Sequence record: OK040806
DNA: 64,000 nt
Direction: 5' to 3' (one strand)
Source: Escherichia phage CL1
The translations under genes and the position numbers were made by a program. Positions 14,194-52,804 of the stretch are shown here, piece by piece; position 1 is the first letter of the stretch, and the number at the start of each line of letters is the position of its first letter. The notes under the pieces are model-generated. The model was not told the DNA's origin. It saw only the letters and a list, made by a program, of their open reading frames with translations, and made no database searches.

Positions 14194-15075
14194 ATGAAAA
14201 CATCTATCCGTGTTACAGTTCATTCACCAACTAAAGGTACTCATGAAGAAGAGTTTAACATCATCCAATTTCCTTCTGGTGAGATTGGTGGACACTTTTC
14301 ACAAGAGCTTGTTGATTTCACTGCTTATGCAGCATCATCCATCAACAATGTGATTATGATTGTAAAAGGTTATGATAAAGACACATTGTTTGCTGTGGCA
14401 CTTGCTAAAGAAGCAATTGATGATTTAGTCCCTCATGATTATGCTTTAAAGACTGTCATCTTTTACTACTTACCAAATGCACGATACGACCGTCACATGT
14501 TTAAAGGTGATGCAGCAGCTTTAAAGGTTTTTGCTAAGCAGGTCAATGCAATGGGGTTTGGCGCAGTCTGTGCAGTTGACCCTCACAGTTATGTACCAGA
14601 TAACCTGTTTAACTGCTTCCAGAGTATTCCTCAAAAGGAAATTGCAGTCCACTATGCAAATGACCCACTGGTTGATTACTTAGTAGCCCCAGATGCAGGT
14701 GCTTCTAAGAAGATTGCAGAGACTGCTAAAGAGGTGGATAAACCATATGTCACAATGTCTAAAGTACGTAACCTTAAGACTGGTGAAATTACTGGTATGC
14801 GAATCCTTGATGATGTTGATTTGACAGATAAAACCGTCATGATTCTGGATGATATTTGCGATGGTGGTCGAACCTTCATAGAGGCAGCTAAACATCTTCG
14901 TGAAGCAGGTGCAAGACGTGTGGAACTCTATGTAACTCATGGCATTTTCTCTAAAGGTGTTGAAAACTTGCTTGACAACGGCATTGACCACATCTACACT
15001 ACAAACTCTTTAGGGGAAGCTAAAGACCGTGGCTTAACACATTATGGTCAAGTTACTGTAGCAAACCTTGATTAA
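14194..15075 (+). CDS. prs: ribose-phosphate pyrophosphokinase-like (PRPP synthetase family; candidate ADP-ribose pyrophosphate synthetase)
   Basis: PRPP-binding motif VMILDDICDGGRT; ATG 14194 after GAGGG; immediately upstream of NampT-like gene. Confidence 0.85.
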   Translation: MKTSIRVTVHSPTKGTHEEEFNIIQFPSGEIGGHFSQELVDFTAYAASSINNVIMIVKGYDKDTLFAVALAKEAIDDLVPHDYALKTVIFYYLPNARYDRHMFKGDAAALKVFAKQVNAMGFGAVCAVDPHSYVPDNLFNCFQSIPQKEIAVHYANDPLVDYLVAPDAGASKKIAETAKEVDKPYVTMSKVRNLKTGEITGMRILDDVDLTDKTVMILDDICDGGRTFIEAAKHLREAGARRVELYVTHGIFSKGVENLLDNGIDHIYTTNSLGEAKDRGLTHYGQVTVANLD

Positions 15076-26741: not shown

Positions 26742-26948
26742 ATGCTTTACAGTCGCGAATTGATGGTTACAACTAACGTTAACACAGGTGTAAAACGTTT
26801 CTACATGCAAATCTGCGGCGTATGGTCCAGAATATCAGAAGATGACTATTGCAACTATGTAGGAACGGCTATTAATTCTAATTGCTATCTGACAAGAAAC
26901 ACTAAGAAATTTACAAGGCAGACAGCGATTTACTACTACGACAAATAA
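26742..26948 (+). CDS. array ORF 1, hypothetical (68 aa)
   Basis: ATG preceded by conserved CTAAACTGGAGAATCTAAAA. Confidence 0.5.
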   Translation: MLYSRELMVTTNVNTGVKRFYMQICGVWSRISEDDYCNYVGTAINSNCYLTRNTKKFTRQTAIYYYDK

Positions 26949-27036
26949 AGTACTTTACAGGGGGCTTAAAAGCTGATATCTTAAGCCCCAGATAAAGAGC
27001 TTTACTAAATTAACCCTTAAACTAGGAGATTCAAAA
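26949..27036 (+). repeat. type A intergenic cassette (copy 1, variant)
   Basis: GGGGCTTAA..TTAAGCCCC hairpin + AGATAAAGAGCTTTAC + CTAGGAGATTCAAAA leader. Confidence 0.6.
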
Positions 27037-31613: not shown

Positions 31614-31739
31614 TCAATAACTTACAAAAAACTTTTAAAAAAGTGTTGACAATACCCCTTGACATTGGTAACTTTGTTCGAGGGGGTTTATCTAAAAGGG
31701 ATTAACTTAAAAGATTCTTTATAGATAAACTTAAAAAAT

Positions 31740-33011: not shown

Positions 33012-33049
33012 TCGACGCAGCGGGGCTAAATAGCCCCAGATACCTTTAC

Positions 33050-33071
33050 AGCCCCTTAAATGGGCTTTTTT
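33050..33071 (+). terminator. intrinsic terminator ending the plus-strand array
   Basis: AGCCC-CTTAAAT-GGGCT then TTTTTT; preceded by GGGGCTAAATAGCCCC hairpin. Confidence 0.55.
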
Positions 33072-34650
33072 ACGTCTTATTAAATCCTTTCCCTTTCCTT
33101 TCCAGAATCTTACTAGACCTTAAAAGCAATAACTCTATAGTCTACTCTATAGCCTTTTATCAAATCAACTTAAATATAAGCCCATAACCCGAAAGGGAAG
33201 GGCAACCATTTAAACGCTCTATAAAGCCCTATAACAGCCTTATCAACCTAACTTAAGGGATTGCATTACTCCACGCTTAAAAGCTCTTTATAAAGCTTCT
33301 CAGAGCCTTAAAAGAATCTTATAAGGGTGTAAGCTTTATCATCTCGTTAGTATCTTGTGAATAACTAAAAAGGGCTTGTTAGTGTCTTAAAAGTATGTTA
33401 TAGGGGCTATAAAGTTGCTTAAAAGTTGCTATAAAGTTACGTAAATGCTAGCCCCCTTAACATTTTCTTAACAAATTTTTAACAATCCCTACATAGTTAT
33501 GCTTTTAAGGCACTTGTTAACAACTTGTTAGCCCCTTGTTAAATCTCTGTTAAGACCACGTAAAAGCCTTGTAAGAGTCTTTGACATAGCCTTAAAAGCT
33601 CCTGTAAAGCCCTATAAAGAGCTTTCTATATAGTTGGGGTGCAATTACTAGGGAGAGGCTTAAAAGAGCTTACAAAGAGCTATAGAGAGCTTTTAAGAGG
33701 GCTATTTAAAGGGTCACTAAGAGGGAAAGGGAACTATAGACCAAGAGATAGTGACCATGTTAATAGCTTGTTAAAAAGATTAAACACTTGTTAGGAACTT
33801 GTTAATTATCTTAACAAAATAACTCTTAAAAATTAACTTGTTAGCTCTTGTTAGTCATCTGTTAAGACTCTGTAAAGCCTACGTATCAACTGTTAAAAAA
33901 CTGTTAAGCTCTTGTTAGTTCTGTTAAGAATCTGTTAAGACCTCTGAAGAGATGTTAAGAAGATGTAGCAACTGTTAAGAGATTGTTAATGATATTTTAA
34001 AATTTTGCAAAGGGGATGTTACAGGGATGTTAAGGGCTACCAAGCAGATATATATCTTCTACAGATATTTTTGAGTTCCTTCAAAGACCCTAAAAAATGA
34101 CTTGATAGCTCTATTTTATAAAAATTTTAAAATTCTGAATAATTACCTAGACAGTCTTTTAAAAATACAGGTAGAAACAGGCTTATAAGATACCTTGTTA
34201 GTACCGTGTTAGACCTTGTGAGATAAGGTCTGTAAAGATATTCCTGTTAAGTTTGCTAAAACAGTCTATATAGAGGCTTAGTATTTCCTAGTGAACACCT
34301 ATAGAGAGTGTCATAGCTGACATAGAGATTAAGAGGTGTATAGGAGCTTCTAAGAGGGTATAGAGGGATGGTTAAGGTGATTGTATAGGTTGTTAAGAAG
34401 GCTTGTTAGAAGAGTGTTTAAAGGGCTTGTTAGAGGGTTATTTAGAAGGCTTATACAGAGGGGCTATTAAGACCACTAGATAGTGACTAAGATACTATAT
34501 AGTACTATATAACTATATAGAGAGTAAGATTAAGAAGGTTGTTAAGAAGGGTAGATATTTTATTCACATATGATGGTGACCCAGAGGTTGGGACAACCGA
34601 TGAAATTTTATAAAAATTAAAAAGCCCCCAATTAAGGAGGCTCTTAAGAT
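33072..34650. repeat. 1.6-kb ORF-free AT-rich region densely packed with short direct repeats (TGTTAAG/CTTGTTAG family, TATAAAG/TTAAAAG words)
   Basis: More than 25 copies of NTGTTAA/G, clustered 33500-34020 and 34190-34560; palindromes near 34044 and 34490-34520; sits between converging plus and minus gene blocks. Confidence 0.6.
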
Positions 34651-34653
34651 ATT

Positions 34654-35680: not shown

Positions 35681-35733
35681 TTCGCTACCTTCTAAGTTTC
35701 TACAAAGGGGCTATCAAGTAACCCCTCAAGCTA

Positions 35734-35958
35734 CTACTCAGACTTTTCAGTTTTCTTTTCAGATTTCTTACTAGTCTTCTTCTCAGCTTTCTGCTCAGGT
35801 TCCTTCTCAGAAGTTGCCTTGATAACCATATCAAGAAGCTCTGATAAGTCACTCTTCAGCAAAGTAACAGGCTGCTCATTGTAGAAGTTTTTGTCAAGAT
35901 AAACTTTGAACTCTTCTATAGAAGGAAATCCAAAAATTGGTACAGGTGTCTTAATCAT
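35734..35958 (-). CDS. hypothetical protein with Lys/Glu-rich C-terminus
   Basis: 74 aa; ATG start. Confidence 0.4.
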   Translation of the reverse strand: MIKTPVPIFGFPSIEEFKVYLDKNFYNEQPVTLLKSDLSELLDMVIKATSEKEPEQKAEKKTSKKSEKKTEKSE

Positions 35959-51337: not shown

Positions 51338-52804
51338 ATGGCAGAAATTACAGAAACACAAGAAAGCTTACCACCATTTAGAATGGGTGAAGTAGGTTCT
51401 TTGGGTCTGAAGGTTAAGAATGGAAGAATCTATGAAGAACCTCGTCAGGCACTAAGGTTCCCTGAAAGTATTAAAACTTTCCAATTAATGATGCGTGACC
51501 CTGCTGTAGCAGCATCTGTAAATATTATTAAGATGTTTGTCAGAAAAGTCAACTGGAGATTCGTACCTCCAAAGGGAAAAGAGCAAGACCCTAAAATGCT
51601 TGAAAGAGCAGACTTCTTTAATTCTTTAATGGATGACATGGAGCATGATTGGGCAGATTTTATTAACTCTGTAATGTCATTCTGCACTTATGGGTTCTGT
51701 GTTAACGAAAAGGTTTATAAGAAACGTCAGGGTAAAAAAGGAAAGTACCAGTCAAAATTTGATGATGGTCTAATTGGGTGGGCTAAATTACCAATCAGAA
51801 ACCAGTCAACACTTGATAAGTGGTATTTTGACGAAGACTTTAGAAAAGTTACTGGTGTTAGACAGAATCTGAGAAATGTTTCACATATTGCTGGAGCAAT
51901 TAATCTTGGAGAAAGACCTCTAACAAGAAAACTTCCACGAGCTAAATTCATGCTGTTTAAGTATGACGATGAATATGGAAATCCAGAAGGTCGTTCACCA
52001 TTACTTAATGCTTATGTACCGTGGAAGTATAAAGTACAGATTGAAGAGTATGAAGCTGTTGGTGTTTCAAGAGACTTAGTAGGTATGCCAAAGATTGGTT
52101 TACCACCAGACTATCTGGATGAAAATGCAGAGCCTGAAAAGAAAGCTTTCGTACAATACTGCAAAACTGTTGTTAACGATATGATTGCTAATGACAGGGC
52201 AGGTTTAATCTGGCCTAGATATATCGACCCAGAAACTAAAGAGGATATCTTTGAGTTCTCATTAGTCTCTAGACAGGGTGCTAAAGCATATGACACAGGT
52301 TCTATCATTGACAGATATTCCAAGCAGATTATGATGGCATTTATGTCAGATGTTCTTGCTATGGGTCAGTCAAAATATGGTTCATTCTCTCTTGCAGATT
52401 CTAAGACAAGCCTATTAGCAATGTCAGTAGATATTCTGCTGAAGCAAATTAAGAACGTAATTAACCGTGATTTAGTTGCACAGACTTATGCTCTTAATAT
52501 GTGGGATGATGAAGAACATGTGCAAATCACATATGATGATATCGAAACTCCAGACCTTGAAGCAATTGGTTCTTATATTCAGAAGACTGTTGCAGTAGGT
52601 GCTTTGGAAGTTGACAAAGAGCTATCTAACAAACTTAGAGAGCATATTGGTCTTCCTCCTGCTGATGAGTCTCAGCCAGTATCTGAAAAGCTTTCTCCAA
52701 ATAGCCAAAGCCGTTCAGGAGATGGTTACAAGACCGCTGGGGAAGGTACTGCAAAGACACCTTCAGCGAAAGACCCAAGCACAGCAAATAAGGCAAATAA
52801 ATAA
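51338..52804 (+). CDS. putative portal protein
   Basis: About 490 aa immediately after terminase and before prohead protease; assignment by position and size. Confidence 0.55.
   Translation: MAEITETQESLPPFRMGEVGSLGLKVKNGRIYEEPRQALRFPESIKTFQLMMRDPAVAASVNIIKMFVRKVNWRFVPPKGKEQDPKMLERADFFNSLMDDMEHDWADFINSVMSFCTYGFCVNEKVYKKRQGKKGKYQSKFDDGLIGWAKLPIRNQSTLDKWYFDEDFRKVTGVRQNLRNVSHIAGAINLGERPLTRKLPRAKFMLFKYDDEYGNPEGRSPLLNAYVPWKYKVQIEEYEAVGVSRDLVGMPKIGLPPDYLDENAEPEKKAFVQYCKTVVNDMIANDRAGLIWPRYIDPETKEDIFEFSLVSRQGAKAYDTGSIIDRYSKQIMMAFMSDVLAMGQSKYGSFSLADSKTSLLAMSVDILLKQIKNVINRDLVAQTYALNMWDDEEHVQITYDDIETPDLEAIGSYIQKTVAVGALEVDKELSNKLREHIGLPPADESQPVSEKLSPNSQSRSGDGYKTAGEGTAKTPSAKDPSTANKANK

Follow-up and report, generated by a model that had tools for sequence, protein, structure and literature searches.

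A gene-free region that probably joins the genome ends of a Felix O1-like phage carries helically phased arrays of short conserved words

We analyzed a stretch of 64,000 nucleotides from Escherichia phage CL1 (sequence record OK040806; this whole stretch is 'the window', and all positions are given in it) that includes a gene-free region at 33072–34650 built from a small vocabulary of short repeated words. Our principal finding is that this region is probably where the two physical ends of a Felix O1-like genome meet, with the two copies of a direct terminal repeat (DTR; 591 bp here) collapsed into one by assembly. Judging from the sequences of relatives whose ends have been located, we give this reading a probability of roughly 0.8. 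The DTR and the non-coding DNA on both of its sides carry conserved words of 7–8 bp that recur at a pitch of 10–11 bp; we infer that these arrays may be a protein-binding lattice for the cutting and packaging of concatemers; that a protein binds the words, which protein this is and what it does in packaging are all predictions.

The phage in the window is a Felixounavirus (Felix O1-like). Its gene-free region is 99.9% identical to that of Escherichia phage C600M2, and 256 phage records match it, 196 of them over at least 80% of its length; the names of these records are almost all those of Felixounavirus or of coli, Salmonella and Shigella phages. Two of the relatives have the repeat at both ends of their records: MW481326 (Pr103Blw) is annotated with a 581-bp 'short direct terminal repeat', 100% identical between the two ends, and MH571750 (Ro111lw) has an identical 613 bp. 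Both DTRs align to exactly 33451–34041 of the window; their authors derived the repeats with PhageTerm and termed them T7-like short DTRs. For UAB_Phi87, a combination of Bal31 digestion, SpeI mapping and run-off sequencing identified a 608-bp DTR, with two specific SpeI fragments that were Bal31-sensitive and run-off drop-offs (Bardina 2016). The printed repeat starts with AACATTTTCTTAACA, ends with GGGCTACCAA / GGGATGTTAAGGGCTACCAA and corresponds to 33459–34043 of the window. The GenBank record of UAB_Phi87 (JN225449) is opened in the tRNA region, so we mapped the ends of this phage with the supplementary sequence of the paper and a check of the SpeI fragments: the boundaries placed on the record predict terminal fragments of 2747 and 4435 bp, compared with the published 2819 and 4322 bp. 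(The DTR-equivalent stretch in JN225449 is 614 bp.) A prior examination of the window from its letters alone (the sequence-only reading) had named a genome terminus only as something to be ruled out; the published and deposited DTRs of the relatives instead map onto this very region.

The ends of other records agree with these boundaries. Using a more sensitive search, we found that many related records break within the region at two recurring points. On the left-boundary side, the record of BPS15Q2 begins at 33437, and those of ECOH1, SPT-1 and NBEco004 are cut only a few bases from the boundary (all four at it or at most ~15 bp away); at the right boundary, the record of pEP20 begins at 34041 (in reverse orientation), and that of Citrobacter phage KMM2 is cut ~12 bp away. 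Records from different laboratories share the same two cut points (within ~15 bp), which, together with the Bal31 and PhageTerm results on relatives, indicates fixed and non-permuted ends. Both boundaries are conserved: the left falls between an A and GCCCCCTTAACA, and the right between GGGCTACC and AAGCAG. A search of the window for 20-mers of the DTR found none outside it. As an observation on the edges of the repeat, the sequences at 33451–33475 and 34017–34041 resemble an imperfect inverted pair (GCCCCCTTAACATTTTCTTAACA at the left edge; GGTAGCCCTTAACATCCCTGTAACA as the reverse complement of the right edge), an arrangement that would fit a single nuclease that nicks one strand at the left boundary and the other strand at the right; the resemblance is not clearly retained in the Erwinia phage described below, and the region has many inverted word matches.

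The DTR is located in a gene-free stretch between two converging gene blocks, as the sequence-only reading had recognized. The interval from the stop of the last + strand open reading frame (ORF; 33011) to the first − strand ORF stop (34654) is without an ORF of at least 60 aa, and the sole ORF within the region is a 51-aa GTG ORF (33639–33794). The Felix O1 genome paper describes the region as the convergence of transcription units 97-131/1-23 and 40-24. Each block ends in an intrinsic terminator, and a terminator scan places both terminators facing inward. In other records the region is either left empty or annotated with a 'repeat_region', the flanking terminators or tiny hypothetical coding sequences. 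Intergenic hairpin/terminator elements of the early region at 26940–27010, 31700–31730 and 33036–33066 share vocabulary with the arrays (CTTTACAGGGGGCTTAAAAG...TAAGCCCCAGATAAAGAGCTTTAC) and match 57-bp repeats that have been reported between Felix O1 genes 15/16 and 19/20. The features of the region, together with those elsewhere in the window that bear on it, are collected in Table 1.

Table 1. Coordinates of the terminal region and of related features in the window
Feature	Position	Strand	Basis or remark
Right-arm subterminal non-coding spacer	33012..33450		Last + strand ORF stop (33011) to left DTR boundary; in the virion directly inside the right-hand DTR copy
Intrinsic terminator, end of rightward (early) gene block	33050..33066	+	Terminator scan; homologous site annotated as terminator in ASO1A and Mordin
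Predicted DTR, 591 bp, one collapsed copy; at both ends in the virion	33451..34041		Alignment of relatives' repeats
Three reversed TTAACA words (TGTTAA on the − strand), 11-bp pitch, directly inside left DTR boundary	33457..33484	−	Reversed block also opens the DTR in Mordin, mistaenkt, UAB_Phi87 and Prophecy
First forward TGTTAR array, 4 words, exact 11-bp pitch	33515..33553	+	Period 11 in Tandem Repeats Finder (TRF)
Mid-DTR block of CTTAAAAG / CTGTAAAG / CTATAAAG / TATAGAG / TAAGAGGG words	33586..33735	+	
Main forward TGTTAR array, 17 words, reaching right DTR boundary	33758..34033	+	
Left-arm subterminal non-coding spacer	34042..34653		Right DTR boundary to first − strand ORF stop (34654); in the virion directly inside the left-hand DTR copy
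Palindrome AGATATATATCT	34046..34057		5 bp outside right DTR boundary
Three tandem palindromic CTATATAG words	34493..34521		TRF periods 8 and 10; conserved in Mordin and mistaenkt
Intrinsic terminator, end of leftward gene block	34620..34645	−	Terminator scan; annotated as terminator in ASO1A and Mordin
Leader of rightward late/tRNA operon	41991..42100	+	Same vocabulary: CTTAGAAG, CTTAAAAG twice, CTTTTAAGAGG, CTTATAAGAGG
DUF5681 protein with AT-hook-like GRPKGSRNK arm; candidate small terminase	42104..42541	+	Pfam DUF5681, E = 2.9e-14
Large terminase (TerL), enzyme expected to cut at DTR boundaries	49705..51321	+	Pfam Terminase_6N and Terminase_6C; PHROG 979
Mu-type portal	51329..52804		In window

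We counted words in 33072–34650 and compared the counts with those in the rest of the window and in dinucleotide-preserving shuffles. The sequence-only reading had noticed more than 25 copies of NTGTTAA/G, and the counts bear this out: TGTTA[AG] occurs 28 times in forward and 5 times in reverse orientation (1.9±1.3 in shuffles), and the longer YTGTTAR occurs 24 times (1.1 expected). Other words are similarly enriched, with nine copies of CTTGTTAG, compared with one in the remaining 62 kb (+ strand), and seven of CTTAAAAG, compared with 0.2. Most of the words share the frame CT-N4-AG, which occurs 61 times (11.6±3.3 in shuffles). Nearly all of the array words have the same orientation; the exception is the block of three reversed copies that opens the DTR. 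The arrays are thus composed of units of 7–8 bp that belong to at least three families and are repeated at a 10–11-bp pitch.

The words are in phase with the DNA helix. The distances between CT-N4-AG words peak at 10–11, 21–22, 31–33 and 42–43 bp; for pairs of TGTTAR words separated by at most 45 bp, 34 of 42 distances fall in the phase classes (~29% by chance). Given a pitch of ~11 bp, successive copies are located on the same side of the helix. The start-to-start spacings in the main array (11, 20, 11, 39, 10, 11, 31, 11, 11, 9, 11, 20, 20, 11, 33, 11) illustrate this pattern. In Fourier analysis, only the DTR taken by itself shows a strong peak for AA (11.2 bp; power 19.3); over all 1.6 kb the power at 10–11.5 bp is 7–10, that is, within the range of background tiles (maximum ~12), so the phase is local and does not extend across the whole 1.6 kb.

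The word families are distributed unevenly over the region. The right-arm spacer contains 19 CT-N4-AG words and a single TGTTAR, and it is dominated by CTTAAAAG / CTATAAAG / CTTATAAG; CTTAAAAG and CTATAAAG are found mainly on this left side of the DTR, whereas TGTTAAG and CTTGTTAG are found in the DTR and to its right. Twenty-one of the forward TGTTAR words are inside the DTR, and seven are to its right. The words abut both cuts: the reversed TTAACA words start 6 bp inside the left boundary, and a TGTTAAG ends 7 bp inside the right boundary. In the left-arm spacer, an AT-rich stretch is followed by TGTTAR, TATAGAG and CTATATAG words (7 forward TGTTAR and 18 CT-N4-AG in all). Both palindromic elements to which the sequence-only reading had drawn attention, one near 34044 and a run at 34490–34520, are present in this spacer; the first is replaced by AGATATACATCT or AGATATACATCC in relatives and by AGATATACA in the Erwinia phage Prophecy, and the second is the tandem of CTATATAG words.

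The arrays are conserved, both among close relatives and between genera. In 20 aligned copies of the region, the conservation of the TGTTA core is 0.94–0.96, compared with 0.75–0.89 at neighboring positions (permutation p = 0.017). The segments 34062–34261 and 34462–34653 of the left-arm spacer are conserved at 0.95–0.99. Insertions and deletions among the 20 copies cluster at 10–12 bp (18 events) and at 20–24 bp (12 events); likewise, the lengths of the DTRs form a ladder of roughly 11-bp units that extends from 569 to 658 bp. In the Mooglevirus Mordin and the Suspvirus mistaenkt, 18 and 22 of the 28 words, respectively, are kept in place, with ~4.5 and 7.6 expected from overall identity. In alignments to these other genera, 96–98% of the length of the non-coding region is covered, compared with only 29–63% of the flanking genes. 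(We dropped an argument based on the reported GC content of 47% for mistaenkt; the flanks that we fetched are 36% GC.)

The most divergent case is Erwinia phage Prophecy (PP869456), whose sequence can be aligned in short patches only and whose record begins at the homologous left boundary (AGCCACTTTTACATTTCGTTAACA). TGTTAR occurs in Prophecy 18 times in forward and 9 times in reverse orientation (1.4 expected), with the reversed words first and the forward words after them. In the right-arm spacer of Prophecy, TTCTAA[AG] (11 copies in 568 bp) replaces the CTTAAAAG and CTATAAAG of Felixounavirus, and the TGTTAAG of the repeat is retained; this swap of the spacer word suggests two separate recognition specificities that change at different rates. 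Across four genera, word clusters accompany the DTR and its boundaries. Slippage alone accounts for the unit-sized insertions and deletions but not for the persistence of the same core word and layout across genera.

In T7-type phages, the adjacent genomes of a concatemer share a single repeat at each joint; cleavage by the terminase is at fixed sites, and packaging is accompanied by duplication of the repeat. By analogy, replication of the Felix O1-like phages would produce head-to-tail concatemers with one copy of the DTR per joint, which the terminase would recognize and cut at the two fixed boundaries given above. Duplication of the DTR would then place a copy at each end of every packaged genome. 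The phased words would be a putative cis-acting lattice of binding sites for a multimeric protein that marks the joint and shapes its DNA, by bending or wrapping, for cutting and packaging; transcription from the converging gene blocks would be kept out of the region by the flanking terminators.

Compared with the DTRs of Felix O1-like phages already described (UAB_Phi87, 608 bp; Ro111lw, 613 bp; Pr103Blw, 581 bp), the repeat in the window is homologous in sequence, has both boundaries conserved, belongs to the same length class and occupies the same position, that is, between converging gene blocks whose last genes are Felix O1 genes 23 and 24; it differs in nothing essential, only in length and by whole units of ~11 bp. 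The accessible published descriptions of these DTRs give the repeat and its length and do not mention phased word arrays.

The concatemer junction of T7 (and T3) is similar in having a short exact DTR, gene-poor subterminal DNA on both sides and many 7-bp words of one orientation both within and beside the repeat. We find 13 CCTAAAG words in 828 bp of T7, in one orientation and at a pitch of 13 or 26 bp, across the 160-bp repeat and both of its flanks; Dunn and Studier are said to have named arrays of short repeats inside and flanking this repeat SRL and SRR. Some words of the two phages look alike (CTTAAAAG, CATAAAG, TAAAGAGGG and CCTTGTTGTTAGCC). However, the phages are unrelated (T7 is a podovirus, and the phage in the window is a myovirus), the main word here is TGTTAAG, the pitch is 10–11 instead of 13 and 26 bp, and the repeat here is almost fourfold longer. 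The parallel is one of functional analogy and not of membership by descent; we found no relatedness in sequence between the arrays. For the T7 junction, one passage of PMC13236587 cites Chung and Hinkle (1990) for its sufficiency in cis for the packaging of a plasmid.

A further comparison is with the recognition arrays of small terminases, that is, the R sites of lambda cosB with their IHF site, the hexamers of P1 pac and the pacL and pacR of SPP1. The terminal region resembles these in that short repeats flank the cuts and the phasing implies bending or wrapping of DNA; it differs in having ~30 to 60 copies over 1.6 kb and two fixed cut sites that bound a repeat.

Several points weigh against the reading of the region as a genome joint with a packaging lattice. 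The ends of this isolate are placed by homology, at 85–91% identity to the DTR-bearing records. The boundaries from PhageTerm and from run-off sequencing differ by 8 nt on the left and by 2 nt on the right; the SpeI fragments agree only to ~70–110 bp (differences of 72 and 113 bp); and the GenBank record of UAB_Phi87 is 87,603 bp long, compared with 87,669 bp (including the 608-bp DTR) in the paper. A replication origin could share the same region. With regard to the arrays, the 20 aligned copies are closely related, which limits the independence of the conservation test; slippage alters tandem arrays by whole units whether or not these are functional; and we know of no settled function for the analogous arrays of T7.

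Other explanations of the arrays can be judged by the same observations. If the arrays belonged to an iteron-type replication origin, as the sequence-only reading proposed as one of two possibilities, their ligand would be an initiator of the phage, and replication would start by melting of the AT-rich stretch at ~34090–34150; such an origin might coexist with a terminus. The dense direct repeats in helical phase and the adjoining AT-rich tract, which is present and conserved, are shared with lambda ori, P1 oriR and T4 oriE; in addition, two perfect 9-mer DnaA boxes (TTATTCACA; 33356–33364 on the − strand and 34560–34568 on the + strand) bracket the DTR in opposite orientation, and the cumulative GC skew turns nearby (34–35 kb). 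However, the units are words of 7–8 bp from several families, too short and heterogeneous for iterons of 17–22 bp. No initiator gene adjoins the arrays: the four flanking ORFs are without a Pfam domain, and the PHROGs to which they belong have no known function. Mordin and mistaenkt have kept the arrays but have changes in both DnaA boxes, which are therefore probably fortuitous. The skew, which had been suggested as a check, is uninformative about an origin because its turn coincides with the switch in gene orientation. Finally, the extent of the densest array is exactly that of the DTR, a match that a terminus explains directly. We consider an origin unlikely. Arrays of protein-binding sites continue to be plausible, but the observations speak for neither of the two functions that had been suggested from the letters, an iteron origin and an array for a regulator.

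The arrays could also bind a regulator or a nucleoid protein of the host (IHF, HU or a head-to-tail binder of the OmpR/PhoB type) for a purpose other than packaging, for example as a sponge, as a topological barrier between the converging units or for the protection of the ends after injection. The 11-bp pitch is typical of proteins that bind direct repeats head to tail on one face of the DNA, the same vocabulary is found in the leader of the late operon (41991–42100), and the look-alike words in T7, an unrelated coliphage (CCTAAAG and CTTAAAAG), might reflect a host factor common to both. Single-mismatch IHF-like sites are likewise in excess (12, with 4.0±2.1 expected), but the region contains no exact IHF consensus, and the near-matches are a by-product of the TAACAA-N4-TTA spacing of the words. 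The association of word clusters with the DTR and its edges, seen in four genera, also makes a host factor of this kind doubtful in our view. Words without function, that is, filler made by slippage in an untranscribed zone that needs only a suitable length of repeat, would account for changes by whole 11-bp units, for DTR lengths that vary over 569–658 bp without apparent harm and for several unrelated word families side by side. Filler is nevertheless improbable: the cores are better conserved than the spacers, the words kept in place across genera far exceed the expectation from identity, TGTTAAG and the reversed-then-forward layout persist in an Erwinia phage that aligns only in short patches, and alignments between genera cover more of the non-coding region than of the flanking genes. 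A non-coding RNA or a repeat-array locus (e.g., a CRISPR-like array or a protein-sponge RNA) is suggested by the length of the sequence without ORFs and by its many motifs repeated in a single orientation, but we regard it as very improbable: an Rfam scan of the region (E up to 1) returned only sub-threshold noise (top match 28.4 bits, compared with a gathering score of 71), a sigma-70 scan found promoter-like sites at chance level (11, compared with 7.9±2.2), the terminators on both flanks face inward, and the units of 7–8 bp are far shorter than CRISPR repeats.

If the arrays are a packaging lattice, a small terminase would be the most likely binder; in the literature, the small terminase of Felix O1-like phages is without an assignment. 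We tentatively propose the DUF5681 protein, the first gene of the rightward operon after a divergent promoter, as a lead for both the small terminase and the binder of the arrays, based on a sequence motif and on gene position in other phages. Its N-terminal motif, FKKGQSGNPxGRPKGSRNK, is invariant in 31 homologues, and its only profile match in the PDB, albeit weak (E = 0.23), is the second AT-hook of HMGA (PsGRPKGSrNks compared with PRGRPKGSKNKG). In metagenomic phage contigs, a distant homologue overlaps the start of a large-terminase gene, where a small-terminase gene is classically found. A possible, and equally tentative, extension is that the arrays are the docking lattice for a new class of small terminase, in which DUF5681, as an oligomerizing helical hairpin with an HMGA-like AT-hook arm on every subunit, would read successive AT-cored words on one face of the DNA, wrap the joint and set the two staggered cuts from which the DTR arises. 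The copy in the window is 145 aa long, compared with 123 aa in most homologues, with a C-terminal extension of ~22 residues.

The candidate has evidence against it, beginning with the weakness of the HMGA match. The AlphaFold2 model, a disordered arm followed by a helical hairpin, is mediocre (pLDDT 67.5), and a Foldseek search of this model against the PDB found nothing below E = 1, with the small terminases of G20c and P74-26 at E ~3. The gene and that of the large terminase are 7 kb apart. Recognition by an AT-hook is through the minor groove, which does not obviously explain the strictly conserved G of TGTTA. Around the distant DUF5681 genes in metagenome contigs, we found no word arrays. 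A second, weaker candidate for a small terminase or packaging accessory, again from sequence features and position, is the product of a 66-aa ORF directly upstream of the large terminase (49498–49698, + strand), which is acidic and helical-looking; Prophecy has a 60-aa gene at the same place.

The gene for the DUF5681 protein is preceded by the leader in which, as the sequence-only reading had pointed out, similar words recur (41990–42090, the divergent 40/41 junction in the Felix O1 genome paper). We find six AT-cored CT-N4-AG words in 120 bp (CTTAGAAG, CTTAAAAG twice, CTAAAAAG, CTTTTAAG and CTTATAAG), compared with a window mean of 0.57, and this is the only non-coding hotspot outside the terminal region. 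The presence of these words in its leader counts in favor of the DUF5681 candidate. A link between the leader words and the terminal arrays is possible; the candidate DUF5681 protein might bind to the look-alike words of its own leader and so regulate itself. At 41940–42103, a sigma-70-like promoter (TTGACA-N17-TATAAA) is followed by the leader, which has an inverted repeat (AGATATCTTTCTGGATATCT). Downstream, a 471-aa DUF2828/DUF7788 protein (42558–43973, + strand; 'RNA-binding protein' in PHROGs) is encoded directly upstream of a 26-gene tRNA array (44139–49275). Another CT-N4-AG hotspot, at 35681–35820, coincides with a tandem array of CTTCTCAG, CTTTTCAG and CTGCTCAG words (35700–35820, − strand) and is apparently coding, with our own translation yielding a Lys/Glu-rich C-terminal tail; CTTCTCAG-like words are also found in the non-coding end region of Prophecy. 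The hotspots at 14621 and 57201 look like chance matches (their sequence was not mapped to ORFs).

Earlier publications have described the terminal repeat of Felix O1-like phages, a few records annotate it, and it is an ordinary genome terminus that the collapsed assembly of the window conceals. The findings do not overturn current understanding, and the biological point is more limited than the one for annotation. In the literature that we consulted, we did not find descriptions of the phased and conserved word arrays, their evolution by 11-bp units, their persistence across four genera or the parallel with T7. For annotation, the non-coding block marks the true genome ends in Felix O1-like records that are collapsed or arbitrarily opened; these could be re-opened between the A and GCCCCCTTAACA of the left boundary, with the ~590-bp repeat placed at both ends. 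Correct ends matter for the engineering and rebooting of phages that are widely used in the therapy and typing of Salmonella and E. coli. For the biology of these phages, the arrays provide a testable handle on how a myovirus with a short DTR recognizes and cuts its concatemers and on its missing small terminase, and their likeness to the long-unexplained terminal word arrays of T7 suggests a shared logic.

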